Origin: Cyanidioschyzon merolae
Lineage: Eukaryota
Length of the DNA: 64,000 nt
Assembly (NCBI GenBank): GCA_000091205.1
Contig: AP006487.2
Reading direction: 5' to 3' (one strand)
Made by a program: the position numbers and the translations under genes. The notes beneath the pieces are model-generated. The model made no database searches, had not been told where the DNA came from, and saw only the letters and a list, made by a program, of their open reading frames with translations. Below are positions 1 to 18,174 of the stretch, in pieces (within the stretch, counting starts at the first letter, position 1; every line of letters begins with the position of its first letter).

Positions 1-79
1 GAGCACGCCATCCGAAAGCGATGCGTCTAGTGCGACAGCAGCAGTACCAGCCGCAACAGCTAGTGCGCACAGCAGTTTC

Positions 80-2884
80 GTGTCTCGTACACCGCAGATA
101 CTAGCGACGACAACGGTCGAGACGCCTCGCCAACGTACGGAACCGGAGCGCCTTATCGCAAGATCGCCCAGTGATGCCCGTCATGAAAGTTACGCGACAG
201 AGAGCAATCTTTCTCACGGGACGCAAATGACCGCTTCATATCGCTCGCGAGCTGTGAAACCTACGCTGGTGGACGAGCGGCCGCCCACAGTGCCAAGCCC
301 GTCCGCCTCTTCAGCGCAAGCAATCCACCGCCAAGCAACCAAACCGGAGCAAGACGTCAGACAAAGCACGCGGGGGCATGCAGCGGCGCGAGCACCAGCT
401 GCATCCGCAGCATCCGACGATGCTGTGAGAGGCAACCGTTCATCAGCAAGCCCCAGTGAGGCTTCGGAAATCCGCTGGCCCCAACGCCTGGAGTTTGTCT
501 CCTCTGGAGAGCGTTCACTGACGCCAGAAAAACCACGCACACGAACAGACGATGCACATGTCGCTGCAAATTCATTGGATAGCGATATGAGATCCTTTCG
601 CACGGCGCCGGATGAACGGAATCCGGATACACCAGCCGAGCGCACCCTGGATGTGGCTGCATCTGGTTGCTCGGGAATCGTCCCGGACCCCAGTGCCGGA
701 GACGAAGATATTCTCGTTCATACGCAAGCAGCAGCAGCAGCAGCAGCTGCTGCTGCCGAAGCCCGTCTCGTTATTCAGCAAGAGCTCGCTCGACGTTTCC
801 AGGAAATTCGCCAGCAGCAGCGGGAGCATGCACATCCCGCACACCCCGAGCAACAGCAGCGGGAACAACGAGACCGTGCGACTGATCAGCAGCTGGATGT
901 ACGAGATACCTCGACAGTGGCAGCAGCAGCAGCAGCAGCCCCGTCGATCCGTACGGATCCGAGCGTTTTCGAAACGACTTGCTCGTCGGAGTGGTGCTCA
1001 AACCAGTCCTCCATTTCCCGTTCGCGATACGAAGCGATGAAGACGCGTGTAGCACTCATGAAAGAGCGCCTCGGCAAGATGATGCTCGCGGGCACCTGCT
1101 CGACAACGATCGTCATGAGTGCAGCGCCTGCCGAAGATGCCACCCGTTTCCCCAGACACGAAGCACCACCCAAAACGACTGCTGCTGCAATGCAGACACG
1201 GCACACGGCGAGTTCGCCAAGTTCCCTCGGTGCCGCATCGAATGCGCTTCAGCTAAGTCATGCTATCGTGAACCTCCATGCCGGTACATTCGGGGAGTTC
1301 AAGCGCCTCGAACCGCTGCCAGCACAAGCGGCGACACGCTGGAGCATGGAAATCGACTTTCTGCTATCGCCATGTGAGCAGATCGTCGTTCGTACGCCAG
1401 TCAGACGAACACTTCCAGACGGAACCAGTGTTGAAGTGTTAGAGAGTCGTCTGCGCGCAGATATCGGAGAGCACCTTCCACGACTACGCAGTTTGGATCA
1501 TGCGATCCGAGAAATGCTGCGTTCCTTTCGAGAGCTCAGCGGTGTGCTTCATTACGAATCAACGGCTACTCGAGGACCGGACTGGTGGATTGAACGCCCA
1601 CGAGTTCCCACCGAGGGCCTATCACCAGGCATCCGAGCGTTGTTGCAGCGCTCGTTCGCCGAGGCTCAAGATATCCAGCGCGTTGCTCGCAGCATTAACG
1701 AACAGGTCTTGCGTTCGATACCTTGTCCAACCCGCGAGTATTCCTGTAGCTGTTTCGGGTATGATCTCAGCGAGCTGACCAGCGCTTGGTCGCTGACCCC
1801 ACGGCGACGTCCGCTTATTCGCGTCCGCGAGGTGCTTGGCCCAGACCTCTACGAAGCAGTGACCAAGAACGCCGCCTTCAGTGCCGTTGCCTATGCTCGA
1901 ACTGCCGTGCTCCGCTTGTCAACGGATGCTGTGCTGCCGCTGGGCGTCGACGCGGATGCACAAAACGCAAAACTAACCCAACTGGTGGAGCGTCTGGAAA
2001 GAGCCGAGTTTGTGTATCGGCTGAAGATTGACAGACTGAACCAAGCAAGTCGCTTTGGGATTCCATGGCGCCGGGAGAAGCTCGAGCGTTGCTATGCTGC
2101 ACGTCGTCGGTGTGAGCGAGGTGCACACGCTTTACGGGAGATATTCACGGGGGTAGGCCATACAACCAGAGATCAGTGTGCCATTCGTTACAATACGGAT
2201 GTGGGCACAGCGATTCTCGAGGCATACGCCCGTGTTCTGGAACATCGGGCTGCGGCGATTGGCAAGCGCATTCGACTGGTACTAGAAGCGGATCAGCGAC
2301 AGCAACAGCAACTACAACAACAACAACATCAACGGCTGCGGTCTGGACGAGCAGGTGTGTCCCTGCGAGCATCAGGGTCGCGGCTGGAGCTTTCTAGTAC
2401 GCAGCGTGCCGACGCTTGTAGCAGCAGCAGCAGCAGCAGCGGCAGCAGCAGCGGCAGCAGTAGCAGTGGCTATCCTGCGAGCGACTTGCCGCCGCCGCCG
2501 CCGCCGCCGCCGCCTGCACTTGTGGAACGTCCTCGGACGATGCCAGCGGGTCTCTTTGCTCGCCAGCATCGCAGCAGCGCCTGTCGCTCGCACCACTGCC
2601 ACGCTGAGGAGCTCACCACCGAGGCCAGCGTATCGCAAGGCATGCGTTGCGGAGCTGCTGTTTCAGCGAACAAGGCATCACGCACTGATCCTCTCGCTGC
2701 CGTGAGAGACAGCGGCGCAGAGACGCTTCCGGTGCGACGCACGACGGCCTTGGCACTGTGGACGAACGCTCACCCGCCTGCACCAGAGCAGGCTATCGAC
2801 ACCAGTCCTGCATGTGGTCGGTCGGTGGTATCGAAGCAGCGAACGTCTCCAGAGACGGCATCCGAACATGAGCGACCTGCATAG
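80..2884 (+). CDS. PRONE-domain Rop/Rho guanine-nucleotide exchange factor-like protein with low-complexity N- and C-terminal extensions; possibly 5'-truncated by the window edge
   Basis: Translation carries the PRONE signature blocks in the canonical order: LQLSHAIVNLHAGTFGEFKRLEPL, VEVLESRLRADIGEHLPRLRSLDHAIREMLRSF, WWIERPRVPTEGLSPG...INEQVL and IRYNTDVGTAILEAYARVLE. These match plant RopGEF PRONE motifs (FGE.WRLEPL, VEVM.SRPRADIY.NLPALRKLD, KWWLP.P.VP..GLSE, I.YNKDVGKA.LESYSRVLE). The track start at 80 is a GTG, and the frame is open back to nt 2. The gene has CAG/GCA/CCG homopolymer-coding runs (poly-Q, poly-A, poly-S, PPPPPPPPP at ~2490-2516). Confidence 0.6.
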   Translation: MSRTPQILATTTVETPRQRTEPERLIARSPSDARHESYATESNLSHGTQMTASYRSRAVKPTLVDERPPTVPSPSASSAQAIHRQATKPEQDVRQSTRGHAAARAPAASAASDDAVRGNRSSASPSEASEIRWPQRLEFVSSGERSLTPEKPRTRTDDAHVAANSLDSDMRSFRTAPDERNPDTPAERTLDVAASGCSGIVPDPSAGDEDILVHTQAAAAAAAAAAEARLVIQQELARRFQEIRQQQREHAHPAHPEQQQREQRDRATDQQLDVRDTSTVAAAAAAAPSIRTDPSVFETTCSSEWCSNQSSISRSRYEAMKTRVALMKERLGKMMLAGTCSTTIVMSAAPAEDATRFPRHEAPPKTTAAAMQTRHTASSPSSLGAASNALQLSHAIVNLHAGTFGEFKRLEPLPAQAATRWSMEIDFLLSPCEQIVVRTPVRRTLPDGTSVEVLESRLRADIGEHLPRLRSLDHAIREMLRSFRELSGVLHYESTATRGPDWWIERPRVPTEGLSPGIRALLQRSFAEAQDIQRVARSINEQVLRSIPCPTREYSCSCFGYDLSELTSAWSLTPRRRPLIRVREVLGPDLYEAVTKNAAFSAVAYARTAVLRLSTDAVLPLGVDADAQNAKLTQLVERLERAEFVYRLKIDRLNQASRFGIPWRREKLERCYAARRRCERGAHALREIFTGVGHTTRDQCAIRYNTDVGTAILEAYARVLEHRAAAIGKRIRLVLEADQRQQQQLQQQQHQRLRSGRAGVSLRASGSRLELSSTQRADACSSSSSSSGSSSGSSSSGYPASDLPPPPPPPPPALVERPRTMPAGLFARQHRSSACRSHHCHAEELTTEASVSQGMRCGAAVSANKASRTDPLAAVRDSGAETLPVRRTTALALWTNAHPPAPEQAIDTSPACGRSVVSKQRTSPETASEHERPA

Positions 2885-2974
2885 ATGACGGCTTTGACCC
2901 GTCTACGCGGCATCTTTTCGAATGAACATCCCTCGAACAGTATGCTCATGGAGCGCGTCCGGCTTTCGTGAAGG

Positions 2975-3340
2975 TCATCCGCTGAGAGCGATGGCGGCAT
3001 GTGTCCGACGAACGCTCGAGCTTCGTTCACCGCGTCGACTCATTCTGGATCGACGCTGACGCAGGCACGTTTCGTAGGTATCGGCATCCAGGTTCATGAG
3101 CAGGGTCTGCAACTGTCGTGTCAGCTGTTGGATGCGCGAGTCCCAGTGACGCGCGTTCACGTAAATAGCCTCGGCGAGTACCGGAAACGTATCACTTCGA
3201 TACAGCAACAGCATTTGGCGAAACCATGAACGCGGTGTTTCCAACGCGGGATGCTGCTTGCGTCCATAGGTCTGCTGGTGGACTCCATGGTGTCCAGCGG
3301 GTCTGGACTCGTCAGCGGTATGGTGCAGCAAAGCGCGTCC

Positions 3341-3379
<39 letters not shown>

Positions 3380-3595
3380 ATCATCATCGTCGTCATTGTC
3401 ATGAAGAATGCGATTGGGGGTCGCATGGCCAACTGCGTCCCAGGGGTCGCCCGCTGAGCCATACTCGCGCCCCGAGTCATTCTCCAGGAGCAGCAAAAGC
3501 GCCTCCTCGGCGACGTCCCGGTGCGCAGAAGTCATACAACGCGCCAGTCGGCGAAACACCAGAGGCACCAGCGATGCATCGCGGGAATCGGGTGC

Positions 3596-3632
<37 letters not shown>

Positions 3633-5746
3633 AGTCCACGCGCTGGTGCTGCCCGCCATTGCTGCTCCAACAACGACGCCATTTCATCGAGAAAGAGCAT
3701 CTCTTTGCGCGTATGACTCACTGGCCAGTGTCGAAGCAGGTACATCACCGTAGCGGTTGCCAGCGTGCTGTCCTTGGCAGCAAACTGAAGCGCACACTCT
3801 ATGAGCTCCGTCGCGTACACCACGTATCCATCTGGTGCGTGAAGCGGAAGCAACGCCTGACAATAAAACTCCGCATGCTCTCGCTTGAGCGGTACAGCCA
3901 ACCCCTGGATAATGAGCACCAGAATACTCAGCAGATCGGCAAGTCCACGCACCAGCTGTGCATACGCAACGCCATCGTAGCGATAGGGCAAGCAAAGATC
4001 GCAACTGATGCGACTGCGGATCAGCGTTCGCAGGTCCCGAAAACGCGCATAGATACGGTACAAACAGATCTTGACGTATTCGCGTTCGTAAGCGGGTGCC
4101 TGGAACAGTCGCAGGATGTGCGGAATGAGTCGTTCCCAGAGATCCACGCGTGTGGTCGGCGAGACGGCCACCAGACCAGCCAGTCGTTGCTGACGTACGT
4201 CGGTATCGTGGCGTTCGGGGTCCAGGAACTCGAGCACCAGCGCATACGCACACTCGACCTGGGGCCACCAGGTATCGCCTGCCGTTGGGTCAGTGTCGCC
4301 TGCCGCTGGAGCCGGGCTCCGGCTCGATACGCTGGTAGGCACCGGTTGCCCGCCAGGCAAGCTCCATGGAACGAAGACCTCGTCGTCGGCGAGCGCAAGA
4401 CGCTCGTCTTCGGACATGGGCGGTGGCTCCCTGGCTGCCAAGTGCTCATGGACGAGAATCAGTAGCGCGCTGTACACTGCGGCGTCGGGGGCAAACGCGT
4501 CTGGCTGGGTCTCGGCCCAGTCGACCAGGTCGTTGAGTGCCTCGACTCGTTGTCGCACCTGAGCTGCATGGCGAGCGTCCCAGCTGCGACTACTGTATAA
4601 CGGTTGGCTGCATGCCTGCAGCTGATACAGGAAATCGTCCTGACTGCGTACCTGGGAACGTCCGCGGGGCGATCGACTGTGACCCGCGTCCGAGGACGAC
4701 TGGGATCGACGAGAGCGCGACCTTGAGCGTCTCTCGCGGAAGCTCGGTGGTGCCGCGGCGCGTGCACCCGCAACTCCGTACAATGAGGCAGGAGCATGGA
4801 AGCTGGTGCCGAATGCGCCCATACCGCTGCCACCCGAGGACGCTGTGCCGTTCGGTGCGGCACCGGGCTGACGCTCGCTTGCAGCATCTGCCAGCGAAGC
4901 GACGCTTGGTAGCGAAGGAGTACCAGCACCAGTGGCGCCAGCGGATGACGGCGGTGGCGAGCCTACCGGGGTGCCTGTGTCCGTCGCCCAGGCGGCAGAG
5001 CGCCAGCGCCACGCGTCGCTTGGGGCGTCGGGGCGCGGGCCGCGGCGCTGGCTCCACACTGCAGCAAACGCGCTCGATGTTCCCGCAATGGGCATCGGGG
5101 GCGACTGCTCGTGACTCGCTGCTGCCGAGAGGGCAGGCTCGGGTATGGGCTCCTCGGCGGCTCCCGGGTCGCAGGGCCTCGGCCACGCTGTCCCCAGCGC
5201 CAAAGCCTGGTGCGCAGTCCGCTGCTGATCGACAGCGTCCGGCACTGTAGAGTCGCTCGAAGTGCTCTCGTCGTCGGTTTCGCTTGTGCCGGGCGAGTAT
5301 CGAGACAGCGGCTCAGGTCGCGTCATCGTATCGCTGCTGGGATAGCTGACGCTGCCCAGTGTACCAGCACTGTTCCCGTGGGCGCTGCGCGCCGACGTGG
5401 ACCGGTGCACGTCGCCGGCTCTGCGCTCGGCTGCTCTGGGAAAGCCAGACGACATCGGCTCGCTACTCGCCATTTGGCCAGATATTCGGCCAGTCTGCGC
5501 TGTCTGCAACGCCGAGGGACTCGAACGCTCAGCGCCTGTCCTGTGTTCGATGACGGTCAGTCGATCGAGTGCCTGTAGCGCTGCCACCGAACTGGGGCGC
5601 GATGCTCGACGTTCCGAGTCGCTGCGACTCGGCGACGCAACAGCCGGTGCTGGCAGCTGTGCTTTGGCCTCTGGCCCCAGCGGTACACTCGACTGGGGTG
5701 ATGACGCTGCTGCACCATGTTTCCTGTCTCGGAAGGGCCACCGCAT
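2975..5746 (-). CDS. PP2A regulatory subunit B56 (B-prime) family protein, paralog A, with a ~370 aa low-complexity N-terminal extension and poly-Q tracts
   Basis: The ATG at 5746 was verified. The core matches B56 over its whole length: WPQVECAYALVLEFLDPE..., YEREYVKICLYRIYARFRDLRTLIRSRI, LADLLSILVLIIQGLAVPLKREHAEFYCQALLPLHAPDGYVVYATELIECALQFAAKDSTLATATVMYLLRHWPVSHTRKEMLFLDEMASLLE, PLVFRRLARCMTSAHRDVAEEAL. Compare the B56 consensus [93 protein letters not shown]. Confidence 0.75.
3344..3379. repeat. (GCT)12 trinucleotide repeat inside the B56-A CDS; encodes poly-Gln on the minus strand. A second run (GCT)11 lies at ~3597-3632
   Basis: Perfect gctgctgct... runs are visible in the sequence. 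They correspond to the QQQQQQQQQQQQ and EQQQQQQQQQQQ stretches in the minus-strand translation. Confidence 0.85.
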
Positions 5747-7766
5747 CAGTTAAGCGGCCGTTGCATACGCCGTTTACGTTTCAGGAGAAATAATGATACC
5801 CGAATCGGCGCGCTGGGCGTTGCTCTCGGCCATCGACGCCGAGCGCCGCTGGGCGCGGCATATCATCGTCGGGTGCGGCTGCGCGCCTGTGCTCCCTGGT
5901 CCATCAGTGATGCAGCTGGGCTCGTGATCATCACAGCAGTGCCCGCTGGAGTACCTTCTGAAGCATGGTATTTGCATTGGTTTGTGTTGCGCATAGGTAG
6001 TCAACGCATGGCATGGATGTGCGCGCTCGGCTGCAACCAGCGGATGTGCCGAGACGTGGTGCGGTCGCTGCATGGGGCTACGAGAAGAAACGGGCATTTA
6101 TTGTACAATTCAGTCATCCTATAGGTACTCGCTGGATCTCGGATATTCTGGTCGTTTCGTACGTCCTATCGTATGTGCCTACTGCCTGCCGAAAGCGACA
6201 GCAATAGCGCCTACAGCGCCGATGCGGTCGCTGCACGGAGACAGAACGGCGTTGCCGTGCACCATACGGAGGGCGTCGGCTCGCGTGTCATCGCTGGATG
6301 CGCCTCGTTTCTCGAGTCCGTTTCCTGTGTGTGTGGTATGCGCGTCAACCGGGCCGTATTCGACGCTACCTACGCGACTAGGTCCTTGGAAATCCATAAA
6401 GGTACGATTGACAAGTCATGGAATGCAAAGTTTTCGTCCCGTTGATACGAACGTCGCTGAAGGGAAACGGATGCATGCAGGGGTACGCACGCTGGCGTGG
6501 GAGAGCTGCTCGCGCGTTCATCGATACTCGCGATCGATTTCGTGCGGGAACGCGAATACTGATTGCAACACGATCGGCTATTCGTCTCATTCGGACGGAA
6601 TGTATCCGGGGGCTACATGGTATACTCGTCTGTGGGTGCAAACTTAGTGCAAAGCGCTACTCGTAGATCGGCGACCGGCGTGCATCCCGACACCTCGAAT
6701 TCCGTCGTACGCATGCAGGATGCACGGCTTTGCACGCTTCATTCAGCGCGTTCGTAAGCGTCTGCACGGCTCTTGCAGACCAGATTCGCAAGCGTCGAGA
6801 TGATCAAGCCGGTGCTCGCCGATGATTCGTATTGTAGCGAGACAAGACGTGTGCTCTCGCCAGTTCGTTCAGCGCTTTCGAAAAGAAAACGACCGACAAG
6901 CGGCATCGTTTACTGGTGCTAGCCTCTGTCGCAAGACGTGCCGTACCGTGTCAAGGCCGTGCGCTTGCGCTTTCGATAAGAACGCCCAACGCGTGCTGGA
7001 ATCGACGCAGTCAGATTCCCGTCGATGCCCCCAGGGCGACAAGCATGCATCGGCATCTGGGGCGCGCGCTGAAACTGGTAAATATAACCATCACGTAGCG
7101 GTTTCGACGTTCGAATGGCCTCAGCATCGTGCTCCTGTTGGAGATAGGGCCTGGATCGATCCAGCGACCTCGTGACTGCCAGTTTGATCAGGGCGCTTGA
7201 TCCGTCACGCGTCGATGTATCGTTACCGCGTTCGCGATACCTCCACCGAACGAGACGCCCGTGTTTGTCCTCGCGTCATCCCAGGGCGTAGCGACCTTGA
7301 GCGGCAACACCCGAAAGCACGCGCGCATGCCACAGCCCGTCATCGCTGCATCGGGACGCGCGCAAACTGCCGAATCCTCCCCGAATGACCCAGAGGTTTT
7401 CCGTCTCGATCATCAACTCGTATCCGTGCATTTAGCGAGGCGTTCCGGGATACGCGTATGCCGTCTGGTATCAGGAAAGCAGCACACACGCTTCTGTGTT
7501 TATGTTTATGCGGGTGCATATGCCTTGGCGTTCACCACTCGACATTATTCCAGAATCCGTGCACGCGATGCTGCCTGCAGCGCGCCTATCGCCACCGCGC
7601 GGACACGTCGCGCACGCGATCTGCGCGCCAGCCAGCCGTTGATGCGTGTCCTGCAATGCGTGTATTTTCTGTTTTACGTGACGTGTTACGTTGCCGCCTT
7701 CTTCACCGGTGCGCTTTGACGAACATTGCCTTCGAGGCGGCACGTTTCGTAGTGGATTGATTTTTC

Positions 7767-8723
7767 ATGGATTTCGAGCAGGGCTGGTCACAGAGGGCAC
7801 AGCGACCGGAGACACAGCGTGCTGAGGGGTCGCGCTGGACCCCAGACCCCAAGACGCGACCTGTTGCCAGCGAACGCAACGCTCGACCCGCTGGCGACGC
7901 GTACATTCCGAGCACTTCCGTTCAAGGCTGGAAAGCTGCACCAGCGCCGGTGGAGCTTGGCAACGACACACTCGACGACACGGACTCGGTGGGCAACGTT
8001 GGTGGTGGCGGGCCCCAGACGGGTCCCACGAAGGTCGGCGCCGGTGCCGCTGAACCCGCTTTGACGTTCGGTGCGGCGAGTGTTGGACCCTTTCCACCAG
8101 AGCAAGAGCCGGTGTGCCTCTGTCGTGTGCGCTCAGTGGGTGAACTCGCGTTTCAGACCTGGTGCAGCCTGTCCAAGACCCTGCTCTATTTGTGTGAGTT
8201 TACCTGGGCAATCGTGGTTTTCGGTGTGACAGCGAATTCCCTGTACAATGGGAGTCAGTGCGCGCTGTCGAGCACGAACTCGACGGCGCTTTGCCGCTAC
8301 GCCATCGCCCTGGGAGTCATCGGCTGGGTCCTCGTCCTGATCCTGTCTGTTGTGTATTTCGCAACCAACGCACTGGCGAGGATTCTGCCGCCCGTGTACG
8401 AGATGATCGTGCAGTTGTTTCTGATGGTCTGGTGGTTCATCGGCAGTGTTGTGATTAGTGCAAGCCTTGGAAGCTCCTCTCCGAATCAGGTCAGCATCAA
8501 TACGGTAATTGCTTTTAGTTGGATGCTATTTGTCATGCATTTGGTGCACAGCGGTATTTGTCTTTGGCAGTGGCTGGAATCAGCCGGAGTGCTAGCAACG
8601 AAGACGACGACGACAACAACAACAACAACGACTATTGCGCGTGAACAGCACGCACCTGCGACGCGAAAGACAGGACCGCCATCACCGGTTCTAAGTGACC
8701 ACACGGTGCACAGCGGCGTGTAG
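7767..8723 (+). CDS. Four-transmembrane-helix membrane protein (MARVEL/CASP-like topology) with a disordered N-terminus and a C-terminal poly-Thr run
   Basis: The ATG at 7767 was verified. There are four hydrophobic helices: LLYLCEFTWAIVVFGVTA, AIALGVIGWVLVLILSVVYFA, MIVQLFLMVWWFIGSVVISASL and VIAFSWMLFVMHLVHSGICLW. A short first loop contains two Cys. I assign the family from topology only. Confidence 0.4.
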   Translation: MDFEQGWSQRAQRPETQRAEGSRWTPDPKTRPVASERNARPAGDAYIPSTSVQGWKAAPAPVELGNDTLDDTDSVGNVGGGGPQTGPTKVGAGAAEPALTFGAASVGPFPPEQEPVCLCRVRSVGELAFQTWCSLSKTLLYLCEFTWAIVVFGVTANSLYNGSQCALSSTNSTALCRYAIALGVIGWVLVLILSVVYFATNALARILPPVYEMIVQLFLMVWWFIGSVVISASLGSSSPNQVSINTVIAFSWMLFVMHLVHSGICLWQWLESAGVLATKTTTTTTTTTTIAREQHAPATRKTGPPSPVLSDHTVHSGV

Positions 8724-9675
8724 AAGTCGATGCGGTCCCAGAGCGCAGTGCGCTGCACGGACGGTGTCCAGCGTCTGGAGCCGTCAAGAGTCGTGAACGC
8801 TGGTTTGTTCACAGCGTTTCGGCTGGATTCGGCGGCATCGGGGTCATCGTGTGGTTCGCGGATGCATCATCTCGGAGACGTTCCCTGCTGAGCCGCATCT
8901 TGTTTCGGGGATTTGTGCGAACACTTGTCGCAGGAAAAGAGGGAGAACCACGCGATCGCTGGCAGCGTCGTATGCAGCGATGTCGTCACTGAGTGGTACG
9001 GCTTGAGCGCGTTCAATTTAGCGATGCTCGCTGGGAGCTATTTTGTCTCTGCGGAAAGGCAGTCGTCGAGGCTGTTCATACCAGATGCTTCATTTTATCG
9101 AGCAGCGCAGACGATTGTTGTTGAATTCGCTATTGGACGGAGGAGAACAGCGCGCTTGCGCTTGCTTTTGGAGCGAATTGCATCCGAGCGATGCCCGGAG
9201 AGCGCGCATGCACGCTCTGTCTTTTGCACGCGAGTATCATGCGCACTCAAAGACTAGAGATCTGGAGAGCAGTTTGAAAGCCCCTAGCGCGCTAGCATTT
9301 GCCTAGGTCGGAATGCGCTTCCAGCGATGGATCTGAGCCCCGAGCGCCGTGCAAGCAACAGCGAAGCACATGCCGCAGTTGCCAAGAACGCAACCACGGG
9401 TTTTTTGTCCGCAGGCGTCCCGCGTGAGCGAAACGCAACCGAGTTCAGTGCTTGCTGGCTGAACACCCGAAGATCGTGAAACGCACACTGTCCAAATCAT
9501 CGATATAGTAGGATGTCCAAATAGACAGCATGCTTTAGAGCTACTCGAGGCATGGTAAAAAGATACAAGGCACCGCATCTGCATCGTCTACGCAAATCTG
9601 CACCGCGATCCCAACGACAACGAGCCGCAGCAGCCGAGTCCGACGAGGCATGCGCACACATCGAGTATCGAACAG

Positions 9676-10117
9676 CTACCGCTTGCACAAAGCAGCACCG
9701 CCATCATGAAAGGTAAAGCACGCGATGCGTTTGAGCGTCAAAGGCAAACACCCGTGTCAGTTTCAAATGGAACGGGTTCACTAGGCTACCGCTTGCACAA
9801 AGCAGCACAGCCATCATGAAAGGTAAAGCACGCGATGCGTTTGAGCGTCAAAGGCAAACACCCGTGTCAGTTTCAAATGGAACGGGTTCACTAGGCTGAC
9901 GCTTGCACAAAGCAGCACAGCCATCATGAAAGGTAAAGCACGCGATGCGTTTGAGCGTCAAAGGCAAACACCCGTGTCAGTTTCAAATGGAACGGGTTCA
10001 CTAGGCTACCGCTTGCACAAAGCAGCACCGCCATCATGAAAGGTAAAGCACGCGATGCGTTTGAGCGTCAAAGGCAAACACCCGTGTCAGTTTCAAATGG
10101 AACGGGTTCACTAGGCT
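9676..10117. repeat. Intergenic tandem minisatellite, 110-bp unit x 4 copies
   Basis: The unit gcttgcacaaagcagcac(c/a)gccatcatgaaaggtaaagcacgcgatgcgtttgagcgtcaaaggcaaacacccgtgtcagtttcaaatggaacgggttcactaggct(a/g)(c/a)c recurs at 9681, 9791, 9901 and 10011 with two variable sites. Confidence 0.85.
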
Positions 10118-11514
10118 GATCTGGACGCACATCGCAAACCCCTGGTCTCTTCCAAATGTCATCAAGGCTAACCTCTGCGGGACTTGTCTGCGACTGCTTG
10201 CGTTTCCTATCTATTGCCTCCAGTTTTAAATGCGCCGGTCTCTCCAGTGTCAGTGGCTCCGATGCAAGCAGTTGATGGGTCCTCGTGGCAACCTTAGAAT
10301 CCCGAGAGCGCCGCTTCCGGCTATTGTGGAGACATATGACGCACAGGCGCTAGTCCCGATCCAGGCATCGCGTAGAAACTGAATGCGTTTCTCAGACAAC
10401 CTCGGTGCGTCCTGTGTAGCGGCGACACGCGCCAGTGATTATGCGTCCCCATTCGTTCACGCAACCAGCGCCACCAGCGCCTGCTCTTCCGAGCGCCGCA
10501 CGATGGCGCCCAAACGCTCGCTTGCTCGCTCCACACAGGTCATTGACGAGTACGGAACGCTTCCCTAGATATCCTCGCGCGTTTCAGCGCCAGACACCGG
10601 CCCCCGCGATCACGTACCTGTTCCGGGCGATGCCGTCGACGAGTACGCTGTCGGATGCACACACAAGCGCACACTGTTTCATTCGATCAAGGATTTGTGG
10701 AATGCGCGGTTGTCCATAATGAGAATCGTGCCGGGAGAAGGACTACCCAAACCGGAGAACAAGTCGAGAAATTTCGATCTGTCTACGCGCCATTCATGAA
10801 AGCGGAGGCGTACTCTGTACGTTTAGCGATCGCTGCAAACATCAAGGTCCGAATCCAGGACCCTTTTCCATGCAAACAGAAGCATAGGGAACCTCTGGTA
10901 GCATATTCCGAGAGAAATATCACGCAGATGTGGAAAGTTGTCCAGTCGATAACCAAAAAATGCGGAGTATTTGTCTTTGGAATGAAATTCTTTACTTGAC
11001 GGTGCACGCTCAGTGACCGTTCGACGTGCGCTCGGGAACAACTCGTCAACAAACGACGTCGAGTATCCTCGCTCGTCGATTCAGCGACGCGGTTAACGGT
11101 ACCCATGAGTTGCCTCGAAAGAGAACGGTCGAAAACTTGAAAATTGCCCGATTGATGCACGTTCCACGCATCGAAACGAGATGCGTGAACGCATTGACGT
11201 GCGAATCAAAGAACCACGTCGGTTACTTGACAAACCCGTGGTTGCATGCATCACGAGTCACACAGAGTCCTCTGAGGTACCATATTCCAGCACCGAAGCG
11301 TCAAACAAGTCACTCCAAAGAAACAACCAAGCATTCTAGAACAAGGTTCGAATCCGTTATCTCCTCTGCCTGCACGGCCTATGTCGATGTTGCCCATCTA
11401 AACGTGTCCGACGGTAATCGCTTGGCAAGAGCAGACCATTGCTCCACCCAAGTGAAACACAGAGATACGTACAGAGAGCCACTTTTGTGTGGCATGCATG
11501 CAGCCTATCGACAC

Positions 11515-11549
<35 letters not shown>

Positions 11550-11550
11550 G
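11515..11550. repeat. (CAG)12 trinucleotide repeat in the intergenic/5' region ~450 bp upstream of B56-B; a (CA)8 dinucleotide run follows at ~11861-11876
   Basis: A perfect cagcagcag... run and the run caaacacacacacacacg are visible. Confidence 0.8.
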
Positions 11551-11999
11551 GCAGCCTTGCGCGCGCTGCACGCACGCGCGGTACCAGGCATCGAATCATC
11601 GCGAGATCGCGCTGCACGCGCACGCACCTACGTGTCCAGCAGTCGAGCGTAGAGCGCCTCGATCACGCGCATCGCGGAGGCCTCTGGATGTAGCCGCTGA
11701 TCGAGATTGCGCCGCGCGCGCGGGCGGCGTCGACAACCTCATACCGGCACGCCATCGTAGAAAAGCCCCAAAAGCCACCATCGTCGTCGTCGCCGTCGTC
11801 GGTGGTATCGAGGCTGCGCGTGGGTGTATCTGGGGTCTATCCTCGTTGTTTGGGTCTATACAAACACACACACACACGGGCAAGTCGTTTGCCGTTTAAC
11901 AGTTGCGGGCTCTACAGTCTGTGAAGGGAAAACGCTTGTATAACTTTTGGGTTGTGCATATGGGCGCTTTGTGTTGAATTCAACAAAGTGCTCACGTCA

Positions 12000-14900
12000 A
12001 TGAACGAGCTTGCAGAGCAGGAAGGCGTTCAACGTTCTCGCACTGCTGCGCGGCCTATTCGACCGTTGAGTCGGGCGTGGAGTGCCGGTTCTATGGGGTT
12101 TGGCGAGCACCACCAGGCTTCATGGGTCACTCCAGAGTATGAGTCGACGACGATCGGGGTTTCTGCGCGGAAGCCGCAGCTGGAGCGCCCTATCGCGTGT
12201 GGCGGTTCCAGTAAGGTCGCCTCGGGTTCCGTGGCTGGCGAACGCGGCGCGAGCAACGCGTCGCCGCTGCCACCGCCACATGAAACCCCGGAGCCTCACT
12301 TTCCGGAACAAACGGAGCGGGTTTCGCTGGAACTGGAACCATCACCGGACAGCTTTCTGCAGGATGAGCCCGAGCTACGGAAAACAACGGGCGCAGATCG
12401 CAACGGTGCGGCACTGCGCTCGCAAAGTCTCCAACGTGCACTGGATGCGCTGGTGCAGCCATACGCGCCACCCCAGAGGGAACAGAGGCGCACGCGTGTG
12501 ACGGAGACACAGCGTGCGCAGCCGGCCTCTCCGTCCATCGAAGCATGCGGGAGTACACGAATCACAAGTGAACAGAGAATAGTTGCTCAGACGGAGCGTC
12601 CATTGTGGAACGACAACACTGGAGCGCTGCGCCGTCCTGTGCAGCAGCTGCATCCACGACATGAGCTTTTTGTGCAGATGATGCGGGATCTCGGTGCCTT
12701 CGAAGGCACATCGTCCCGTGGGAATGGGGATACCTCGGGTGAGGCGGCTGCGTTAACGCTCTCGGAGATTCTGAACTTACCTCCGATTCGCACGATTGTT
12801 GACGATGAGGCACGAGCGCGGGCAATAGCGCTCAAACTTGAGTTCTGCACCGTTGTGCCGTCATTACCGGAATGGATTGCGGAAACCGAGTATAACCAGC
12901 GTGTTGAGCGGTGGCTCCATTATCGACACGCCCAGGCTCTGCAATCTCTCCGTACAATGGTAGCCATTTCAGATCAGCTTGAACCGGAATCCTCGGAAAG
13001 CGTTCAAGAGGAAAGTAAGCGCCAACCGATTGGCGGCGAGCACGGCAACTTGGGCGGAATGTACGTTGGTCTGCTGGCACACAAGAGCTCTCGAGCCGGC
13101 TCTATTGAACGGACATCGCCTCCGCGTATGCGAGCGAGCCGCTCAGCGCCGGCCCTTGGACAACTCGCCTGCGAAGATACGATGCTGGAGGGTCGCGCTG
13201 CGCTCCGCAACGTGGTTGAGCGCTTTACGCGATTAGCCACGAACAAAAATGCTTGCCGGGCAGCCGCAGAACAGCAAGGCGTAGCACCCGGCGATACGCA
13301 GCAGGGGACGGTTGCTGGACTTGAGGTGCCGCGCACGACGCAGCACAGCGGCACGGGAGTAGTCTGTTCGGCTGGTGCGTCAGCAGCACCTGCTGCAAGT
13401 AGTATTGGTGCTCTGTCTGGCTCCACGGCGCCCGATCGTAGCGTATTGCCCGAAGAATCGTCGTCACCGACGCTGTCAGCAATGCCCGCAACGACCACGA
13501 CAGATGAACCAGGCGATTACAAGCAGGAACCTCTGATCAGAACGCCAGCAGACCTTATGGACCTGAAACGCGCTGTACTGGCGGACCTCTTGGACGCCGC
13601 AGAGCAAGCGCGACAGCATGGAGAATCAGCGTTCACGGGTATATGGAAGGAGCAGGAGCGGGAGCAGGCATCCGCTCCTCCAAGTCCGCGAATGCCATTC
13701 ATCTTTCAGATTACGAGCAGCGGCAACGCCTTGGAACGCCCAGTACGTGATGCCGGTATGAGCGCCGCCAGCTGGAGTTGTCGCTCACAAACGAGTTCCT
13801 CCTTCTTTTGTTATCCTCTCTTGTCCAAGTGGGTGCGGTTTTTTGCAGCCAATCTCTTCAGACCGTTGCCGCTGCGAAAGCGTCTCGCTGAACCCGAGTA
13901 CTTGAGTGAACGGGAAACGCCGACTCTGCACTACGTCTCGGAGCGCAGCAGCAGCAGCAGAGCGTCAGCCGCGCGACCAGGCAGCCCTGCACCCGTCGAG
14001 GGAGCAGCTGCCCGTGGATGTGTCGCCGATATCGACCACGTTGTATTCGTCGATGATGAGTTGACCAATCCGTGGAACCTACTCGACCCGGTCTGGCCGC
14101 ACTTGGAACTCGTGTACTCGCTTTTCATCGAATTTTCGCTCTGCCGCATCGGCCAAGTACCCGAAGGCGTGCAACTGGGCGAAGAACTTGCCGCGAAACA
14201 TTTCAACGAACGCTTCTTGCATGCACTTTTGAGCCTCTTTGTTTCGGAGGATCCGCGGGAGCGAGATGCGCTCCGGACGGTCGTGCACCGTCTCTACGCT
14301 CGGTATGCAGCACTCCGTCCGTCCATTCGCAAGGTGATGGCTGAGGTGGTCTTTGCGCGGCCTATTGCGGAAGATGATGTTTTCCGGCAAATCTCCTGGT
14401 TTCCACACTGTGCCCACATGCGTACGTCGAGTGCGTTAGCGCGCACAACTTGCCCAGCAGAGACGAGGTCACGTAGTGAGCGTTATCCCCAGCGAGCACG
14501 CTGCACGAACCTCCCCGAGAGTGCAGCACTCGCTGCCGATTGTGGTCTCCGCGTCCAGAACACTGAGGTTTTCCTCGCTGGCTCACATCCGGCTGCGATC
14601 TGGGGAGGACTCTGCTACAACGGCGTCAGTGAAGCACTCGATATTCTCGCCGCGATCGTTGCTGGGTTTTCGACCCCGCTGCGCGAAGAACATCGGTACT
14701 ACTTTCGTCGAGTACTTCTGCCGATGCACAAAGCGCGTGGACTAGCGCGCTATCATCGGGAACTCACCATGTGCATTGTGTTTTACGTTTCCAAGGACGT
14801 TTCACTGGGTGTGGAAGCGATTCGGACTCTGCTGCGCCACTGGCCTCAGACGAGTGCGCGGAAGCAGCTTCTTTTCCTCACGGAGATGAACGACATTCTC

Positions 14901-15467
14901 ACAGCTTGCGGCATTGCGTTGAGCCGCTCAGCGGATACCGCTCGACAGCGCACCGCGCATCCAGGGACGATCCAGTCAAGTCGTCGTCGAGTCGCCTTTC
15001 ATGGACGGTACGCGATGATTGCGGAGCGTTCACGCCAGCAACAGCAACAGCAACAGCAACAGAGTGCGCACATCAACCTGGTTTCTCTGGTGAATCAGTT
15101 TGCAGTGCTGGTGCCTGCGATATTTTCGCGGCTTGCGGAATGTATATGCAGCTCGCAGATGGATGTGAGTGAACGTGCGATTTACATGGTTAGCAACCAG
15201 GAGTTAATCGGAGAACTAGTTGAAAAGTATCGCGCCCAGGTCTATCCGATACTGGTACCCGCGGTGTACCGAACGAGCTCCGAGCACTGGTCTCAAGAGG
15301 TGCGGCACATGGCAACCGTGCTTGCGGGGCTTCTCGAGCAGCTCGATGTGGATCGTTTTCGACAATGGGCACGAGCCGGGCACATGGAGAGCCCTTCGCA
15401 AACTTCACCTTGTCATGCGGAGCGTGAATCACAAGACTTGCACAGAATGCTCAGCTATGCCTCGTAA
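12000..15467 (+). CDS. PP2A regulatory subunit B56 (B-prime) family protein, paralog B, with a ~700 aa low-complexity N-terminal extension and a ~75 aa insertion in the core
   Basis: The track ORF starts at a TTG at 11952; the first in-frame ATG is at 12000 (MNELAEQEG...). Core matches: FAANLFRPLPL...EPTL, DPVWPHLELVYSLFIEFS, SEDPRERDALRTVVHRLYARYAALRPSIRK, ALDILAAIVAGFSTPLREEHRYYFRRVLLPMHKARGLARYHRELTMCIVFYVSKDVSLGVEAIRTLLRHWPQTSARKQLLFLTEMNDIL, PAIFSRLAECICSSQMDVSERAIYMVSNQELIGEL, YPILVPAVYRTSSEHWSQEV. It ends with poly-Q. Confidence 0.75.
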   Translation: MNELAEQEGVQRSRTAARPIRPLSRAWSAGSMGFGEHHQASWVTPEYESTTIGVSARKPQLERPIACGGSSKVASGSVAGERGASNASPLPPPHETPEPHFPEQTERVSLELEPSPDSFLQDEPELRKTTGADRNGAALRSQSLQRALDALVQPYAPPQREQRRTRVTETQRAQPASPSIEACGSTRITSEQRIVAQTERPLWNDNTGALRRPVQQLHPRHELFVQMMRDLGAFEGTSSRGNGDTSGEAAALTLSEILNLPPIRTIVDDEARARAIALKLEFCTVVPSLPEWIAETEYNQRVERWLHYRHAQALQSLRTMVAISDQLEPESSESVQEESKRQPIGGEHGNLGGMYVGLLAHKSSRAGSIERTSPPRMRASRSAPALGQLACEDTMLEGRAALRNVVERFTRLATNKNACRAAAEQQGVAPGDTQQGTVAGLEVPRTTQHSGTGVVCSAGASAAPAASSIGALSGSTAPDRSVLPEESSSPTLSAMPATTTTDEPGDYKQEPLIRTPADLMDLKRAVLADLLDAAEQARQHGESAFTGIWKEQEREQASAPPSPRMPFIFQITSSGNALERPVRDAGMSAASWSCRSQTSSSFFCYPLLSKWVRFFAANLFRPLPLRKRLAEPEYLSERETPTLHYVSERSSSSRASAARPGSPAPVEGAAARGCVADIDHVVFVDDELTNPWNLLDPVWPHLELVYSLFIEFSLCRIGQVPEGVQLGEELAAKHFNERFLHALLSLFVSEDPRERDALRTVVHRLYARYAALRPSIRKVMAEVVFARPIAEDDVFRQISWFPHCAHMRTSSALARTTCPAETRSRSERYPQRARCTNLPESAALAADCGLRVQNTEVFLAGSHPAAIWGGLCYNGVSEALDILAAIVAGFSTPLREEHRYYFRRVLLPMHKARGLARYHRELTMCIVFYVSKDVSLGVEAIRTLLRHWPQTSARKQLLFLTEMNDILTACGIALSRSADTARQRTAHPGTIQSSRRRVAFHGRYAMIAERSRQQQQQQQQQSAHINLVSLVNQFAVLVPAIFSRLAECICSSQMDVSERAIYMVSNQELIGELVEKYRAQVYPILVPAVYRTSSEHWSQEVRHMATVLAGLLEQLDVDRFRQWARAGHMESPSQTSPCHAERESQDLHRMLSYAS

Positions 15468-16703
15468 TGGAATTTACAAGCGCTTGAGTATGAAGGCATG
15501 GACTCGCTCGCGTGTGCATGCAAGTGCTTGTTGGGGAGCATACCCCCCGACCCGAGGACCTGAGCGTTAACAGAGCTCCGTACCTCGTTCACGATAGATC
15601 GCGATCGTCTAGCGGTGCAACTGCCCGACACCTGACCCGAGCGCATGTATACCGGGCCGAATAGAGGCGCTCCATGGGTGTCCATGCGCAGCAGCGTGGC
15701 ACGGAACGCTGCAGCGCGCCGACGAGCCACGTGAATACCCGTCGTCGAGATGTAGCAGCAGTGAAACGTCACTTTCTAGCGCTCGTGCTTACCGGGGGAT
15801 TTATTCCATGTTTGGAAACAAGGTTTCTCCAGTGCAACGTGACTGGTACGACGTGCTACCAGCAGCGTTGCTGGTAAAGCTATTCAAATACACGAGCGCA
15901 GCATGCAGCCATGCGAGCTGCTGCTGCTGATGCTGCTGCTGCTGACGACTGCGACGACGACGCGAAATGAATGTTTGCGGAGATTGTCCGCTCGTGCCAA
16001 TCCAGCTAGATGTTCATAAGATGTATGTTGTAGAGCAGATGAAAAGCAATGACAATGCGCGGTGGTCATGACTTGAATTGTTGAGCGCGCTGTATCTATG
16101 ATGTCGGAAGCGATGCTATTGGGCACCAGCGCTCAGACAACCAGAGTCATGGCTGGTGGAAAGGGGATGAAAACGGGACCAGCCCCATCGCGCCAAAGCT
16201 TCCCATTCTGACTTAAACTTAATCGAGCCGGAGGGAGAAATCGAAGCGACGCATTCACGTCCGTCCTTGTACCCGTCAGCATGCGCATGCTGCTGTTGGT
16301 GCTGCTGCATTCGCAGCGACACCCGCTTTGCGACCTGCGTTGGTGGCGAGCGCACCAGTCCGCTCCCGCGCGGCCACCGCTGCGGGCTAAAGCTGTCGTC
16401 TGACATGTGCCGGTGTCTCGCGAGCTGGTCTCGTTGCGGACACTGGTTACGAGTATCAAGTCACCAGTCCGCAGAAAAGCTGCGCATGTGCTCCGGTTCG
16501 CGACCTAGCCACGCGCTCCAGCACGTACCACGGGTGCGTTTCCCGTTCGTTCAGTGAGCGCGCTGCTGCCGACCAGTGCCGCGATGCGCAAAAGCCGCAT
16601 TTTTCACACCAACGGCATGCAGGCGTCCACATTGACGACTGTGCTCGACCAGGCCGCCTGCACGCACTACATCTGTCGGCGCTTGAAGCGCGCGTCGCAA
16701 CCC

Positions 16704-18014
16704 TCAAGTGAAAATTCTATAGACCTGTACCAATAACCACCAGAGCGCAAGCTGGATCACAGTGATTTTCATCATGACTGTGAAAAGCTTTCCCCAAGTA
16801 GCCGGTTGATATCGCGCGACGCGGTCACTGAGAAAGCGCTTTTCCGCAAAGGCCTGCTCAAGAAGGCGTTCTTTTTCGGCGAAATTCCTGAAAAGCCAAC
16901 GGGCAATCGACTGATCGTCGACAGGTATCTCTTCAATGGGCGTTCTACGGACATGAACGTGGACGCGAAACCGTCGCTTCTGCGCAAAACGCGTCGCTCT
17001 CAGAAACAGATCCGCAGCGGTTGGCTTCGGGTGCCACAGTGCGGGTCGACCGGCGCCGCCTGGCGCAAGGTTTTCGTAGAAAATGGTGCAATCGTACACT
17101 GCACCGAGCGCGGGGCGTAAGCCTTGCACCGCCTGACGAAAGCCCTTGACGCGTGGCACCAAGCAGAAGCGGGGCTCGACCACGGGTCCGTCTGGCGACG
17201 GCGCGTCGACGTTGTTAGCACTCGCACTAGCATCGACGTTTCCAGCGTGATCAGCGCAAAGTCGATGGTAGAAATCCTGTGCTTGTTTCAGCTTCTCTTC
17301 CGCGTTGAGACGCGTCCCCTCGGGAAAGATTGTGAACCAGAACGGAGCTCGCCGCTGCGTCAGTTGTCGATACGTGCGCCGCATCTTGGCCTCGTCGCGA
17401 GCGTAGTTCCGACTAATGAAGAGGACGCCGCCTGTCAGCTTTGCCGCCAGTCCAATAATCGGCAGATACGCCAGCGACCGTTTGCCCAGGAAGCGAAAGT
17501 CGCCCGCACGCCCGGCGTTCATGGCGAGGCAGAAGATAATGAGCGAATCGACCCAGGACCTATGATTCGCCAGCACAATACAAGACTCATCAGATCGCAT
17601 GTCGTCTCCGGTTACGACGAGCTCAAGGCCGCCAACGGTTTCAGCCCAAGAGACCAGAGCTTCCACCCAGAGCCGTAGTCCGTGAGCACGGATCGCGGAA
17701 CGCACCTGCCGCACAGCCTGTGCCAGCGGAAGCGACTCTATTCGGCGGGCAAGTTTCCATATCAGACCAAGAAGAGATAGTAAAAGGGGATTGTAGATGA
17801 CTAGCGGCAAGAAGACGTCGTAGGCAATGAGAATGTAGCTATGCAGCCATACCAGGAACAGGAGGGAAAGCAGCCGCAGGTACCAGAGCGCGATGATGTG
17901 ACGACCCCTGTCCGTGCCGAGGGCAAACTGCATTAAAATCAACAGCGCAGTAACCAGCGGTGACCCAGCAACTTGTTTAACCAGTCGCACTAGTTTTTCC
18001 CATGTTTGCGACAT
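16704..18014 (-). CDS. Lysophospholipid/1-acylglycerol-3-phosphate acyltransferase (LPLAT, AGPAT3/4/LCLAT-like) with a C-terminal membrane segment
   Basis: It has the HX4D motif NHRSWVDSLI and the FPEGTR motif plus the acyltransferase C-terminal region. The track ORF extends to 18263 with a non-homologous Arg/Cys-rich leader. I place the start at the in-frame ATG at 18014 (MSQTWEKLVRLV...), which I verified on the sequence. Confidence 0.7.
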   Translation of the reverse strand: MSQTWEKLVRLVKQVAGSPLVTALLILMQFALGTDRGRHIIALWYLRLLSLLFLVWLHSYILIAYDVFLPLVIYNPLLLSLLGLIWKLARRIESLPLAQAVRQVRSAIRAHGLRLWVEALVSWAETVGGLELVVTGDDMRSDESCIVLANHRSWVDSLIIFCLAMNAGRAGDFRFLGKRSLAYLPIIGLAAKLTGGVLFISRNYARDEAKMRRTYRQLTQRRAPFWFTIFPEGTRLNAEEKLKQAQDFYHRLCADHAGNVDASASANNVDAPSPDGPVVEPRFCLVPRVKGFRQAVQGLRPALGAVYDCTIFYENLAPGGAGRPALWHPKPTAADLFLRATRFAQKRRFRVHVHVRRTPIEEIPVDDQSIARWLFRNFAEKERLLEQAFAEKRFLSDRVARYQPATWGKLFTVMMKITVIQLALWWLLVQVYRIFT

Positions 18015-18091
18015 AGACACAGCGGACACGAACGCGTCGATACAAGTTCGTGTGTCGAAGCGCGAAAGAGCGCTGTGCGCGTACCAGAAAT

Positions 18092-18174
18092 GGCGTGCGC
18101 ACGCATCGCATCGGATGTGACATTGCGTGCGCGTTCGTGACACAGCACGCATCGCCCAGTGGATACGATGCGTG
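18092..18174. promoter_or_regulatory. Palindrome/hairpin cluster upstream of the acyltransferase start: a perfect 12-bp palindrome GCGTGCGCACGC (18092-18103) and a 10-bp-stem inverted repeat GCACGCATCG/CGATGCGTGC (18144-18153 / 18165-18174) with an 11-nt loop
   Basis: Read directly from the sequence. The GCGTGCGC core also recurs at ~18124 and ~18168. The cluster lies 80-160 bp 5' of the minus-strand ATG at 18014. Confidence 0.35.

Follow-up and report, generated by a model that had tools for sequence, protein, structure and literature searches.

A linked pair of diverged B56 genes with disordered arms and core insertions in Cyanidioschyzon merolae

Introduction

A stretch of 64,000 nucleotides from Cyanidioschyzon merolae (contig AP006487.2), referred to throughout as the window, is eukaryotic sequence, rich in GC (~57%) and poor in introns, that carries genes on both strands and contains two divergently oriented open reading frames (ORFs) for B56-type regulatory subunits of protein phosphatase 2A (PP2A), each with hundreds of codons upstream of the B56 core recognised in a first, sequence-only reading. 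The locus raises the questions of whether these upstream codons are translated, where the B56 fold begins in either protein, and how two such dissimilar paralogs came to lie next to each other. We consider it likely that the two ORFs are functional genes for highly diverged, anciently duplicated B56 subunits with translated disordered arms. They are positioned as follows:

2975..5746, minus strand: B56 paralog 1 (gene 1), whole ORF; PF01603 match at 4.4e-51; orthologues P0005, P0006 and Cyanidium L005:2182-4827
12000..15467, plus strand: B56 paralog 2 (gene 2), whole ORF; PF01603 match; orthologues P0002 (Cyanidiococcus, 1117 aa) and P0020 (Cyanidium caldarium, 1178 aa)

Both ORFs are uninterrupted, as first proposed: gene 1 encodes 923 aa from first ATG to stop, and gene 2 1155 aa from its first ATG, in a frame that is open from 11952. 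The sequence-only reading had placed two B56 genes on opposite strands about 6 kb apart, with a gene for a membrane protein with four transmembrane segments (4-TM) between them; the PF01603 matches of both products, the 6,253 bp separating the start codons, and the 318-aa MARVEL-domain gene at 7767-8723(+) bear this out. The 1155-aa product of gene 2 (12000-15464(+)) is identical to the GenBank entry BAM79328.1 / XP_005535614.1 of C. merolae strain 10D, which carries the database title 'similar to protein phosphatase 2A regulatory subunit B', and gene 2 is already in the public annotation with exactly the ORF first proposed. A literature search on C. merolae B56/PP2A and the locus tags CME104C-CME108C returned nothing relevant, and no paper treating either gene was found.

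B56 core of the two proteins

Both products match PF01603 far above the gathering cut-off of 25 bits (gene 1: 4e-51, 174.6 bits; gene 2: 5e-72, 243.6 bits). A local B56 hidden Markov model (HMM) of 474 positions covers gene 1 over positions 35-447 (35-375 on aa 337-754, and 389-447 on aa 852-909) and gene 2 over positions 115-441. Gene 2 was matched to human B56 chains in the PDB in three collinear blocks, resembling the canonical B56gamma core (2NPP, 2IAE, 2NYL, 5SWF; E ~1e-50), and aligned to canonical B56 by profile-profile comparison with hhalign at a probability of 100% (E 1.9e-55). In a Foldseek search with its AlphaFold2 (AF2) model, the top 23 PDB matches were all B56 chains, with E-values down to 2.5e-16 and target-normalised TM-scores of 0.59-0.79; for superposition on the canonical B56gamma core, these scores were 0.66-0.79. 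The AF2 model of gene 1 is all-helical, with a predicted local distance difference test score (pLDDT) of 80-97 across the core. Both models were built on shallow alignments of 16-17 sequences. The low-pLDDT segments of the gene 1 core (aa 455-490, 756-785 and 805-836) lie in loops inserted into it:

2975..4651, minus strand: gene 1 B56 core with inserted loops at aa 455-490, 700-722 (poly-Q) and 756-836 (Asp/Gln-rich), from HMM alignment and AF2

The total lengths depart from the 450-600 aa that had been called normal for B56 proteins, which is a tendency only, with many of the 150 best representatives being 700-1250 aa long.

Both cores are strongly constrained. Against the Cyanidiococcus orthologues they are 70-85% identical, with a proportion of non-synonymous differences (pN) of 0.09-0.19 and an omega of ~0.06-0.10, a rough value because synonymous sites are saturated between the genera. 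The hallmark B56 motifs SEDPRERD, HRLY, PL[KR]xEH, LLRHWP, DVSERA and EHW are kept. In B56gamma, H187 and R188 of the motif LHRIYGKF contact the acidic or phosphorylated position of LxxIxE motifs (PMC7108865). The corresponding groove motif of gene 2 is VVHRLYARY, and its His and Arg, the pair also present in the B56gamma core, are both kept in all three genera compared (Cyanidioschyzon, Cyanidiococcus, Cyanidium). For gene 1, it reads LHR[ML]YARF in Cyanidiococcus and Cyanidium and LYRIYARF in C. merolae, where the Arg is kept and the His replaced by Tyr (aa 563; nt 4058-4060, minus strand). This replacement may have changed substrate recognition in C. merolae alone. From what is known of the family, both proteins would be expected to bind the PP2A A-C core and to recruit substrates through the groove.

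It could be argued that one or both proteins are degenerate B56-like scaffolds, neofunctionalised or decaying, and no longer PP2A regulatory subunits: core identity to the canonical B56 proteins is only 30-34%, compared with ~52% among the canonical proteins themselves, both proteins carry large insertions within their repeats, and gene 1 of C. merolae has Tyr at the position of the groove His. Given the purifying selection on both cores, the retained hallmark motifs, and frames that are intact in all genomes and metagenomes examined, we find this improbable and favour functional subunits.

Probable translation of the N-terminal regions

Upstream of its core, gene 1 has a tail of predicted disorder, within which two segments stand out:

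4652..5746, minus strand: gene 1 N-terminal extension, aa 1-365, Ser/Ala/Pro/Arg-rich, predicted disordered (AF2, composition, pN and the proportion of synonymous differences, pS)
5543..5590, minus strand: gene 1 island aa 53-68 (S.AALQALDRLTVIEH) with an LxxLxxLxV pattern (three-genus alignment, AF2)
4646..4732, minus strand: gene 1 basic/Ser cluster aa 339-367 (RRSRSRSRRSQSSSDAGHSRSPRGRSQVR), directly before the first core helix (three-genus alignment)

The extension consists of 18% S, 17% A, 11% P and 10% R, and nearly all of aa 1-362 has an AF2 pLDDT below 50. The HMM alignment of the core starts at aa 337 and includes the first-repeat region, so that the ~370 aa originally assigned to the extension are essentially right, with a disordered tail of ~340-365 aa.

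The N-terminal regions appear to be translated, judging from their start and from islands conserved across three genera. Orthologues in Cyanidiococcus yangmingshanensis and relatives align over 97-98% of their length. Relative to Cyanidiococcus, the gene 1 extension as a whole has a pN of 0.42 and a pS of 0.73; between these genera, islands have a pN of 0.14-0.25 against a saturated pS of ~0.73, a level similar to that of the cores, and the pN of the linkers between them approaches 0.55-0.6. Comparison of orthologous loci had been suggested as a check along with the sequence-only reading, and it revealed N-terminal islands conserved in Cyanidioschyzon, Cyanidiococcus and Cyanidium. The gene 1 islands kept between Cyanidioschyzon and Cyanidiococcus are the MRWPFR start, AALQALDRLTV(I/V)EH, YSPxxSETDDESxSSDSTV, FAAxWSQRRGPR...WRxRSAAWATDTGT and SFxERRSRSRSRRSxSSSDAGxSRSPxGR; in Cyanidium caldarium, the deeper branch, ALDRLTV..H, the acidic Ser cluster and RRSRSxSRRSxSSSDxGxSxSP are still invariant.

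The first of the two listed segments, aa 53-68, thus includes ALDRLTV..H, invariant in all three genera, and overlaps a weak helix predicted by AF2 at aa 52-64. Its residues 57-65 are the sole match to Phi-xx-Phi-xx-Phi-x-Phi in the extension of all three orthologues, which we take to be the class 1b nuclear-export-signal pattern, aa 57-65 being a pattern match only. In the basic/Ser cluster (pN 0.20, pS 0.67), the columns R339-R347, S350-D353, S359 and P360 are invariant across the three genera, and the cluster resembles a basic RRxS stretch present directly ahead of the core in many canonical B56 proteins, among them P0009, P0011 and P0017.

Variation among environmental relatives is consistent with coding as well. 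The metagenome scan with the gene 1 family yielded as its only matches three environmental contigs, ~99% identical to the window, and no distant relatives. Both frames are intact in these contigs, with no stops, and their indels are all multiples of three and confined to poly-Q; the gene 1 extension differs at 7 synonymous and 7 non-synonymous sites.

That the true starts are internal, just upstream of the cores, with the upstream frames untranslated and open only from GC richness, had been offered as the alternative in the sequence-only reading. At 68% GC without marked third-position bias (GC1/2/3 = 0.65/0.72/0.66), the gene 1 extension has a composition that fits this explanation, and one Cyanidiococcus annotation (P0006, 597 aa) does use an internal start. 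The start Met of P0006 is Trp in C. merolae, however, and that internal start is therefore not conserved; in gene 1 itself, Met309 is followed by no in-frame Met before residue 444, which already belongs to the core. Given the base composition of these segments, the frame would stay open by chance with a probability of 3e-4 over the 370 gene 1 codons; the values for gene 2 are 1e-3 over aa 1-215 and 4e-8 over aa 216-700. The other five frames of the upstream segments contain 3-20 stops each (3-7 for the gene 1 extension and gene 2 aa 1-215). Every orthologue and environmental variant keeps the frame open, and gene 2 aa 216-700 contains B56 helices in conserved blocks 60-77% identical to the orthologue. 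Internal starts are contradicted by the conserved MRWPFR start and islands, a pN far below pS in the islands, the indels in multiples of three, and, for gene 2, the full-length GenBank model; we regard them as very improbable and retain translated N-terminal regions.

In the Cyanidiococcus assembly GCA_013995675.1, the gene 1 orthologue (L001, 4125-7029) is split into overlapping ORFs at 4125-4700 and 4510-7029, and the orthologue as called is 2,515 nt long, a length not divisible by three, which points to a frameshift in the assembly or to a pseudo-intron that the annotation introduced to compensate.

N-terminus and core insertions of gene 2

For gene 2, the sequence-only reading had described a 700-aa low-complexity extension followed by a core starting near nt 14000 (aa 667). 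Neither held. The part that is variable and predicted to be disordered comprises only aa 1-215, aa 216-700 are of ordinary complexity, and profile alignment and structure prediction place the most likely beginning of the B56 fold near aa 216-255, with the extra length residing mostly in insertions inside and between the HEAT-like repeats. The protein is divided as follows:

12000..12644, plus strand: true N-terminal extension of gene 2, aa 1-215, variable, predicted disordered, with islands PIRPLSRA, ASWVTPEYE and TERxSxELxPSP (AF2)
12645..12899, plus strand: gene 2 aa 216-300, conserved helices including the probable first B56 core helix (LNLPPIRTIVDDEARARAIALKLEFCTVV), conserved to Cyanidium (hhalign, AF2)
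12900..13535, plus strand: gene 2 aa 301-512, a lineage-specific insertion in the first HEAT-like repeat, with aa 301-415 conserved and 416-510 variable
13536..14075, plus strand: gene 2 aa 513-692, second helix of repeat 1 (TPADLMDLKRAVLADLLDAAE) and the FFCYPLLSKWVRFFAANLFRPLP helix, with an inserted loop after each (hhalign, AF2)
14076..15395, plus strand: gene 2 aa 693-1132, core detectable directly by sequence, with loops at aa 797-872 and 970-1031 (HMM positions 149-441, PDB matches, Foldseek)

The N-terminal extension has an AF2 pLDDT below 50 (aa 1-217), and its first 50 residues are 56% identical to Cyanidiococcus (pN 0.25, pS 0.58). Downstream, identity to Cyanidiococcus is 60% for aa 216-415 (pN 0.25), 21% for aa 416-510 and 77% for aa 511-700, with the first and last of these blocks recognisable in Cyanidium. 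The mean entropy in 20-residue windows is 3.18 bits for aa 251-700 and 3.36 bits for aa 701-1155.

HMMER gave no match in the first-repeat region of gene 2, which was found by sub-profile hhalign against 100 canonical B56 proteins, its halves separated by the ~210-aa insertion. In this comparison, aa 250-300 (LNLPPIRTIVDDEARARAIALKLEFCTVV) were aligned to the canonical LPxLKDV...LFIxKLxxC segment with a probability of 70% and a pairwise E of 4e-5 for the local sub-profile, and aa 505-650 to canonical positions 85-168 (DLMDLKRAVLADLLD against canonical KEIKRSTLNELID) with a probability of 90.6% and an E of 1.3e-6. The canonical helix 'VLTEPVYPEIVKMVSANLFRTLPP' is placed at aa 602-627, at the start of the profile-profile alignment. 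The confident AF2 helices 269-285, 516-544 and 605-619 (pLDDT 78-91) coincide with the hhalign-matched helices, with local values of 81-91 for helix 269-285, 78-90 at aa 511-540 and 84-90 at aa 601-620; helices 297-326 and 392-426 have moderate pLDDT.

In total, the insertions measure ~210 aa (301-512), 55 (545-600), 60 (630-690), 75 (797-872) and 60 (970-1031). The best reading of these alignments and models, new here, is that gene 2 encodes an insertion-laden B56 protein and not a core plus a 700-aa tail.

Origin of the linked pair

The gene order around the pair was compared between the three genera, with three further genes of the window as reference points:

80..2884, plus strand: PRONE (Rop-GEF) gene, flanking member of a three-gene block (PF03759, 7e-51; synteny)
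7767..8723, plus strand: MARVEL-domain gene CME106C, between the two B56 genes (PF01284, 1.6e-8; syntenic in Cyanidiococcus and Cyanidium)
16704..18263, minus strand: acyltransferase gene, downstream neighbour of gene 2 in all three genera (PF01553, PF16076; synteny)

The order in Cyanidiococcus is the same as in the window: PRONE(+), B56-1(-), MARVEL(+), B56-2(+), acyltransferase(-). In Cyanidium caldarium, it is MARVEL(-), B56-1(+), PRONE(-), MCM_bind(+), B56-2(+), acyltransferase(-); the PRONE/B56-1/MARVEL block has the reverse orientation, so that the two B56 genes point in the same direction, and the genes between them include MCM_bind. The orthologues of gene 2 and gene 1 are CDCA12G3350 (P0020, 1178 aa) and L005:2182-4827 (881 aa) in Cyanidium caldarium, and F1559_000479 (P0002) and P0005/P0006 in Cyanidiococcus yangmingshanensis. 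They have the same extensions, insertions and linkage as the C. merolae pair, which is linked within 6-8 kb in all three genera. Because the same linked paralogs are found in all three, the pair, as far as sequence and synteny tell, predates the divergence of these genera, and the lineages differ by an inversion; polarising its direction needs an outgroup.

The core identity between gene 1 and gene 2 is 28% by BLASTP, 32% over trimmed blocks and 28.5% over 281 HMM-aligned columns. Together with the linkage in Cyanidiococcus and, with the block inverted, in Cyanidium, this agrees with the 'old duplication or inversion' of the sequence-only reading. A B56 phylogeny had been suggested to date the duplication. 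A neighbour-joining (NJ) tree was calculated from the 281 core columns of 137 proteins with 200 bootstraps, in which each family is monophyletic in 200/200 replicates and the two families are joined in 172/200. This result is treated cautiously because both families are long branches and long-branch attraction may have produced the grouping. Two loops, the one that follows the NLFRxLP helix and the one that precedes the PLF helix, carry insertions in both families, which is weak evidence that the families share a single, already diverged ancestor.

When 1.84 billion representative proteins were searched exhaustively with a profile of the gene 2 family, the full architecture was recovered only in Cyanidiophyceae (Cyanidium P0020, 709 bits). 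The best match outside, at 295 bits, is a protein with two B56 units, and the rest, at 220 bits or less, are ordinary B56 or multi-unit proteins. Whole-protein homologue searches gave at least three matches for each gene; the trimmed-core search gave 13 canonical B56 matches, none of them red-algal among the matches listed. A third B56 protein of Cyanidium caldarium, CDCA06G1958 (P0217 / P0048), is of canonical type, with 772 aa, a near-consensus core and a Ser/Pro/Thr/Ala-rich N-terminal region of ~240 aa; since it has such an arm too, long disordered arms seem to be a habit of the B56 genes in this lineage. No third copy is present within the window.

These comparisons also bear on an explanation without local, lineage-specific duplication, in which the genes derive from two much older B56 lineages, or from independently diverged copies, and their adjacency is secondary. 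It would account for the HMMER scores, which for each paralog are higher against canonical B56 than against the other paralog (gene 1: 120-130 bits versus 99; gene 2: 150-200 bits versus 75), for the 28.5% identity between paralogs compared with medians of 30% (gene 1) and 34% (gene 2) to canonical B56 over the same columns, and for the canonical-type gene elsewhere in the Cyanidium genome. The linkage kept within 6-8 kb in three genera, the NJ grouping in 172/200 bootstraps, the insertions at the same two loops, and the confinement of either architecture to Cyanidiophyceae among the 1.84 billion representatives (295 bits outside, 709 bits in Cyanidium) speak for duplication instead. We judge separate older lineages rather unlikely and continue with the ancient duplication.

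Low-complexity runs and motif searches

The sequence-only reading had listed poly-Q, poly-A and poly-S as features of the extensions. Homopolymer runs of at least 5 residues are absent from both N-terminal extensions, and all poly-Q runs fall in B56 core loops, at aa 707-716 and 790-801 of gene 1 (3599-3630 and 3342-3379) and aa 1013-1021 of gene 2 (15036-15062, within loop 970-1031). Neither their position nor their length is conserved in the Cyanidiococcus and Cyanidium orthologues. These CAG/CTG runs differ in length from the ~99%-identical environmental contigs by 3-9 nt and without any shift of frame. Outside the gene 2 ORF, ~450 nt before its ATG, a (GCA)11 repeat at 11515-11548 would read as poly-A, poly-Q or poly-S depending on the frame, and may have led to the earlier report of homopolymers. 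As to low complexity in general, the description fits the Ser/Ala/Pro/Arg-rich, disordered tail of gene 1 and does not fit gene 2, where aa 216-700 are of ordinary complexity.

Pfam searches with the extension and insert segments, including gene 2 aa 291-520, returned no family at E<=1. The regular expression [LFMIV]xx[ILV]xE had no match in the gene 1 extension, and in gene 2 aa 1-215 matched only the non-conserved MNELAE at residue 1; the scan of both arms, which covered LxxIxE-like patterns and no other type of autoinhibitory motif, gave no conserved candidate for a substrate-mimicking, groove-binding short linear motif of the kind described below for B56delta.

Neighbouring sequence

The PRONE ORF at 80-2884(+) encodes 934 aa with a plant-type Rop guanine-nucleotide exchange factor domain and has poly-A, poly-Q, poly-S and poly-P runs of its own. 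The 318-aa product of 7767-8720(+), a MARVEL-domain protein with four transmembrane segments, is identical to BAM79327.1 (CYME_CME106C). The 3.3 kb that separate CME106C from gene 2 are free of genes and contain, at 9675-10117, a 110-bp unit repeated in tandem (4.0 copies, 98% matches). The unit has no second site in the window, is present in 2 copies in the environmental relatives L002 and L004, and has no match in the fetched Cyanidiococcus (L001) and Cyanidium (L005) loci; because of these differing copy numbers (4.0, 2 and none), the array is a copy-number-variable minisatellite. Scans of nt 1-20000 for tRNAs and Rfam families gave no matches.

Discussion

In our reading, the duplication would have preceded the split of Cyanidium, Cyanidiococcus and Cyanidioschyzon, with the copies staying within a few kb of each other, and an inversion of the PRONE/B56-1/MARVEL block would account for the head-to-head layout here as opposed to the co-oriented layout in Cyanidium. 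Both proteins would have kept the helical B56 core while being enlarged by lineage-specific disordered sequence, in gene 1 by an arm of ~340-365 aa, and in gene 2 by an arm of ~215 aa together with several large insertions that lie within repeats or between them. The arms seem to evolve as typical disordered regions, with free linkers and a few short islands under purifying selection. By analogy with known B56 arms, the islands (the amphipathic LxxLxxLxV helix, the acidic Ser cluster and the basic RRSRSRSRRSxSSSD cluster) would be regulatory or docking motifs, possibly controlled by phosphorylation, that tune the localisation or activity of the holoenzyme as the arms of human B56delta do; substrate docking or localisation as functions of the extensions, proposed in the sequence-only reading, are plausible.

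Several points weigh against this interpretation or parts of it. The 923-aa product of gene 1 and six shorter versions starting at internal Met residues had no exact match in the protein collection. Conservation is the sole basis for placing the start of translation at the first ATG. With synonymous sites saturated, the omega values between the genera are rough, and among the environmental contigs the 7 of 14 differences that are non-synonymous compare with a rough neutral expectation of ~70%, our own estimate on small counts. Canonical LxxIxE binding by gene 1 of C. merolae is uncertain because its groove His is replaced by Tyr. As Foldseek reports no residue ranges, we infer that gene 2 aa 255-300 form the first B56 helix from the 70% hhalign probability and the AF2 confidence. 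The possible long-branch attraction in the NJ tree and the higher HMMER scores of both paralogs against canonical B56, described above, belong here as well.

In human B56delta (PPP2R5D), disordered arms with phosphosites and a substrate-mimicking motif fold back and autoinhibit the holoenzyme (PMC10769853). The pair resembles B56delta in combining a helical B56 core with long arms predicted to be disordered, and gene 1 in having a basic/Ser cluster directly N-terminal to the core. It differs in that the cyanidiophycean N-terminal arms are longer (~215 and ~365 aa) and without detected Pfam similarity, and that no conserved LxxIxE-like motif was found in either arm. Unlike canonical B56 proteins, gene 2 has 50-210-aa insertions inside the repeat array; unlike canonical B56gamma, both proteins share only 30-34% identity with the canonical family over the 281 core columns, and C. 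merolae gene 1 has Tyr for the groove His. Rts1 of Saccharomyces cerevisiae is a B56 protein with a long N-terminal region, well above 600 aa. To our knowledge, it has no internal insertions of comparable size. Its extension and those of the cyanidiophycean pair are without sequence relationship. Rts1 is phosphorylated outside its core, at Thr242 by Cdc28 (PMC6506691).

A more far-reaching view would make the linked pair an innovation specific to Cyanidiophyceae, which arose by local duplication and diverged far from a canonical B56 that the lineage retains, as seen in Cyanidium, and in which conserved new modules (the ~115-aa insert in repeat 1 of gene 2 and the motif-bearing arm of gene 1) would serve lineage-specific PP2A targeting or autoinhibition, in an organism whose gene set is minimal for a eukaryote. 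We hold this to be unlikely. On the preferred reading of two highly diverged B56 subunits, the pair is a lineage-specific variation on a well-known family, in which disordered arms are a known elaboration, and no new kind of system. Besides the reinterpretation of gene 2, the new findings are that Cyanidiophyceae have conserved the linked pair, with an inversion in its history, and that there is evidence for the arms being coding.

The pair leaves the understanding of PP2A and of B56 proteins unchanged. It illustrates that B56 can absorb very large insertions and disordered arms under a strongly constrained core. As a model, C. merolae is amenable to genetics and has a gene set that is among the smallest in free-living eukaryotes; its PP2A targeting subunits and their real coding length are useful for annotation and for studies of the cell cycle and organelle division.

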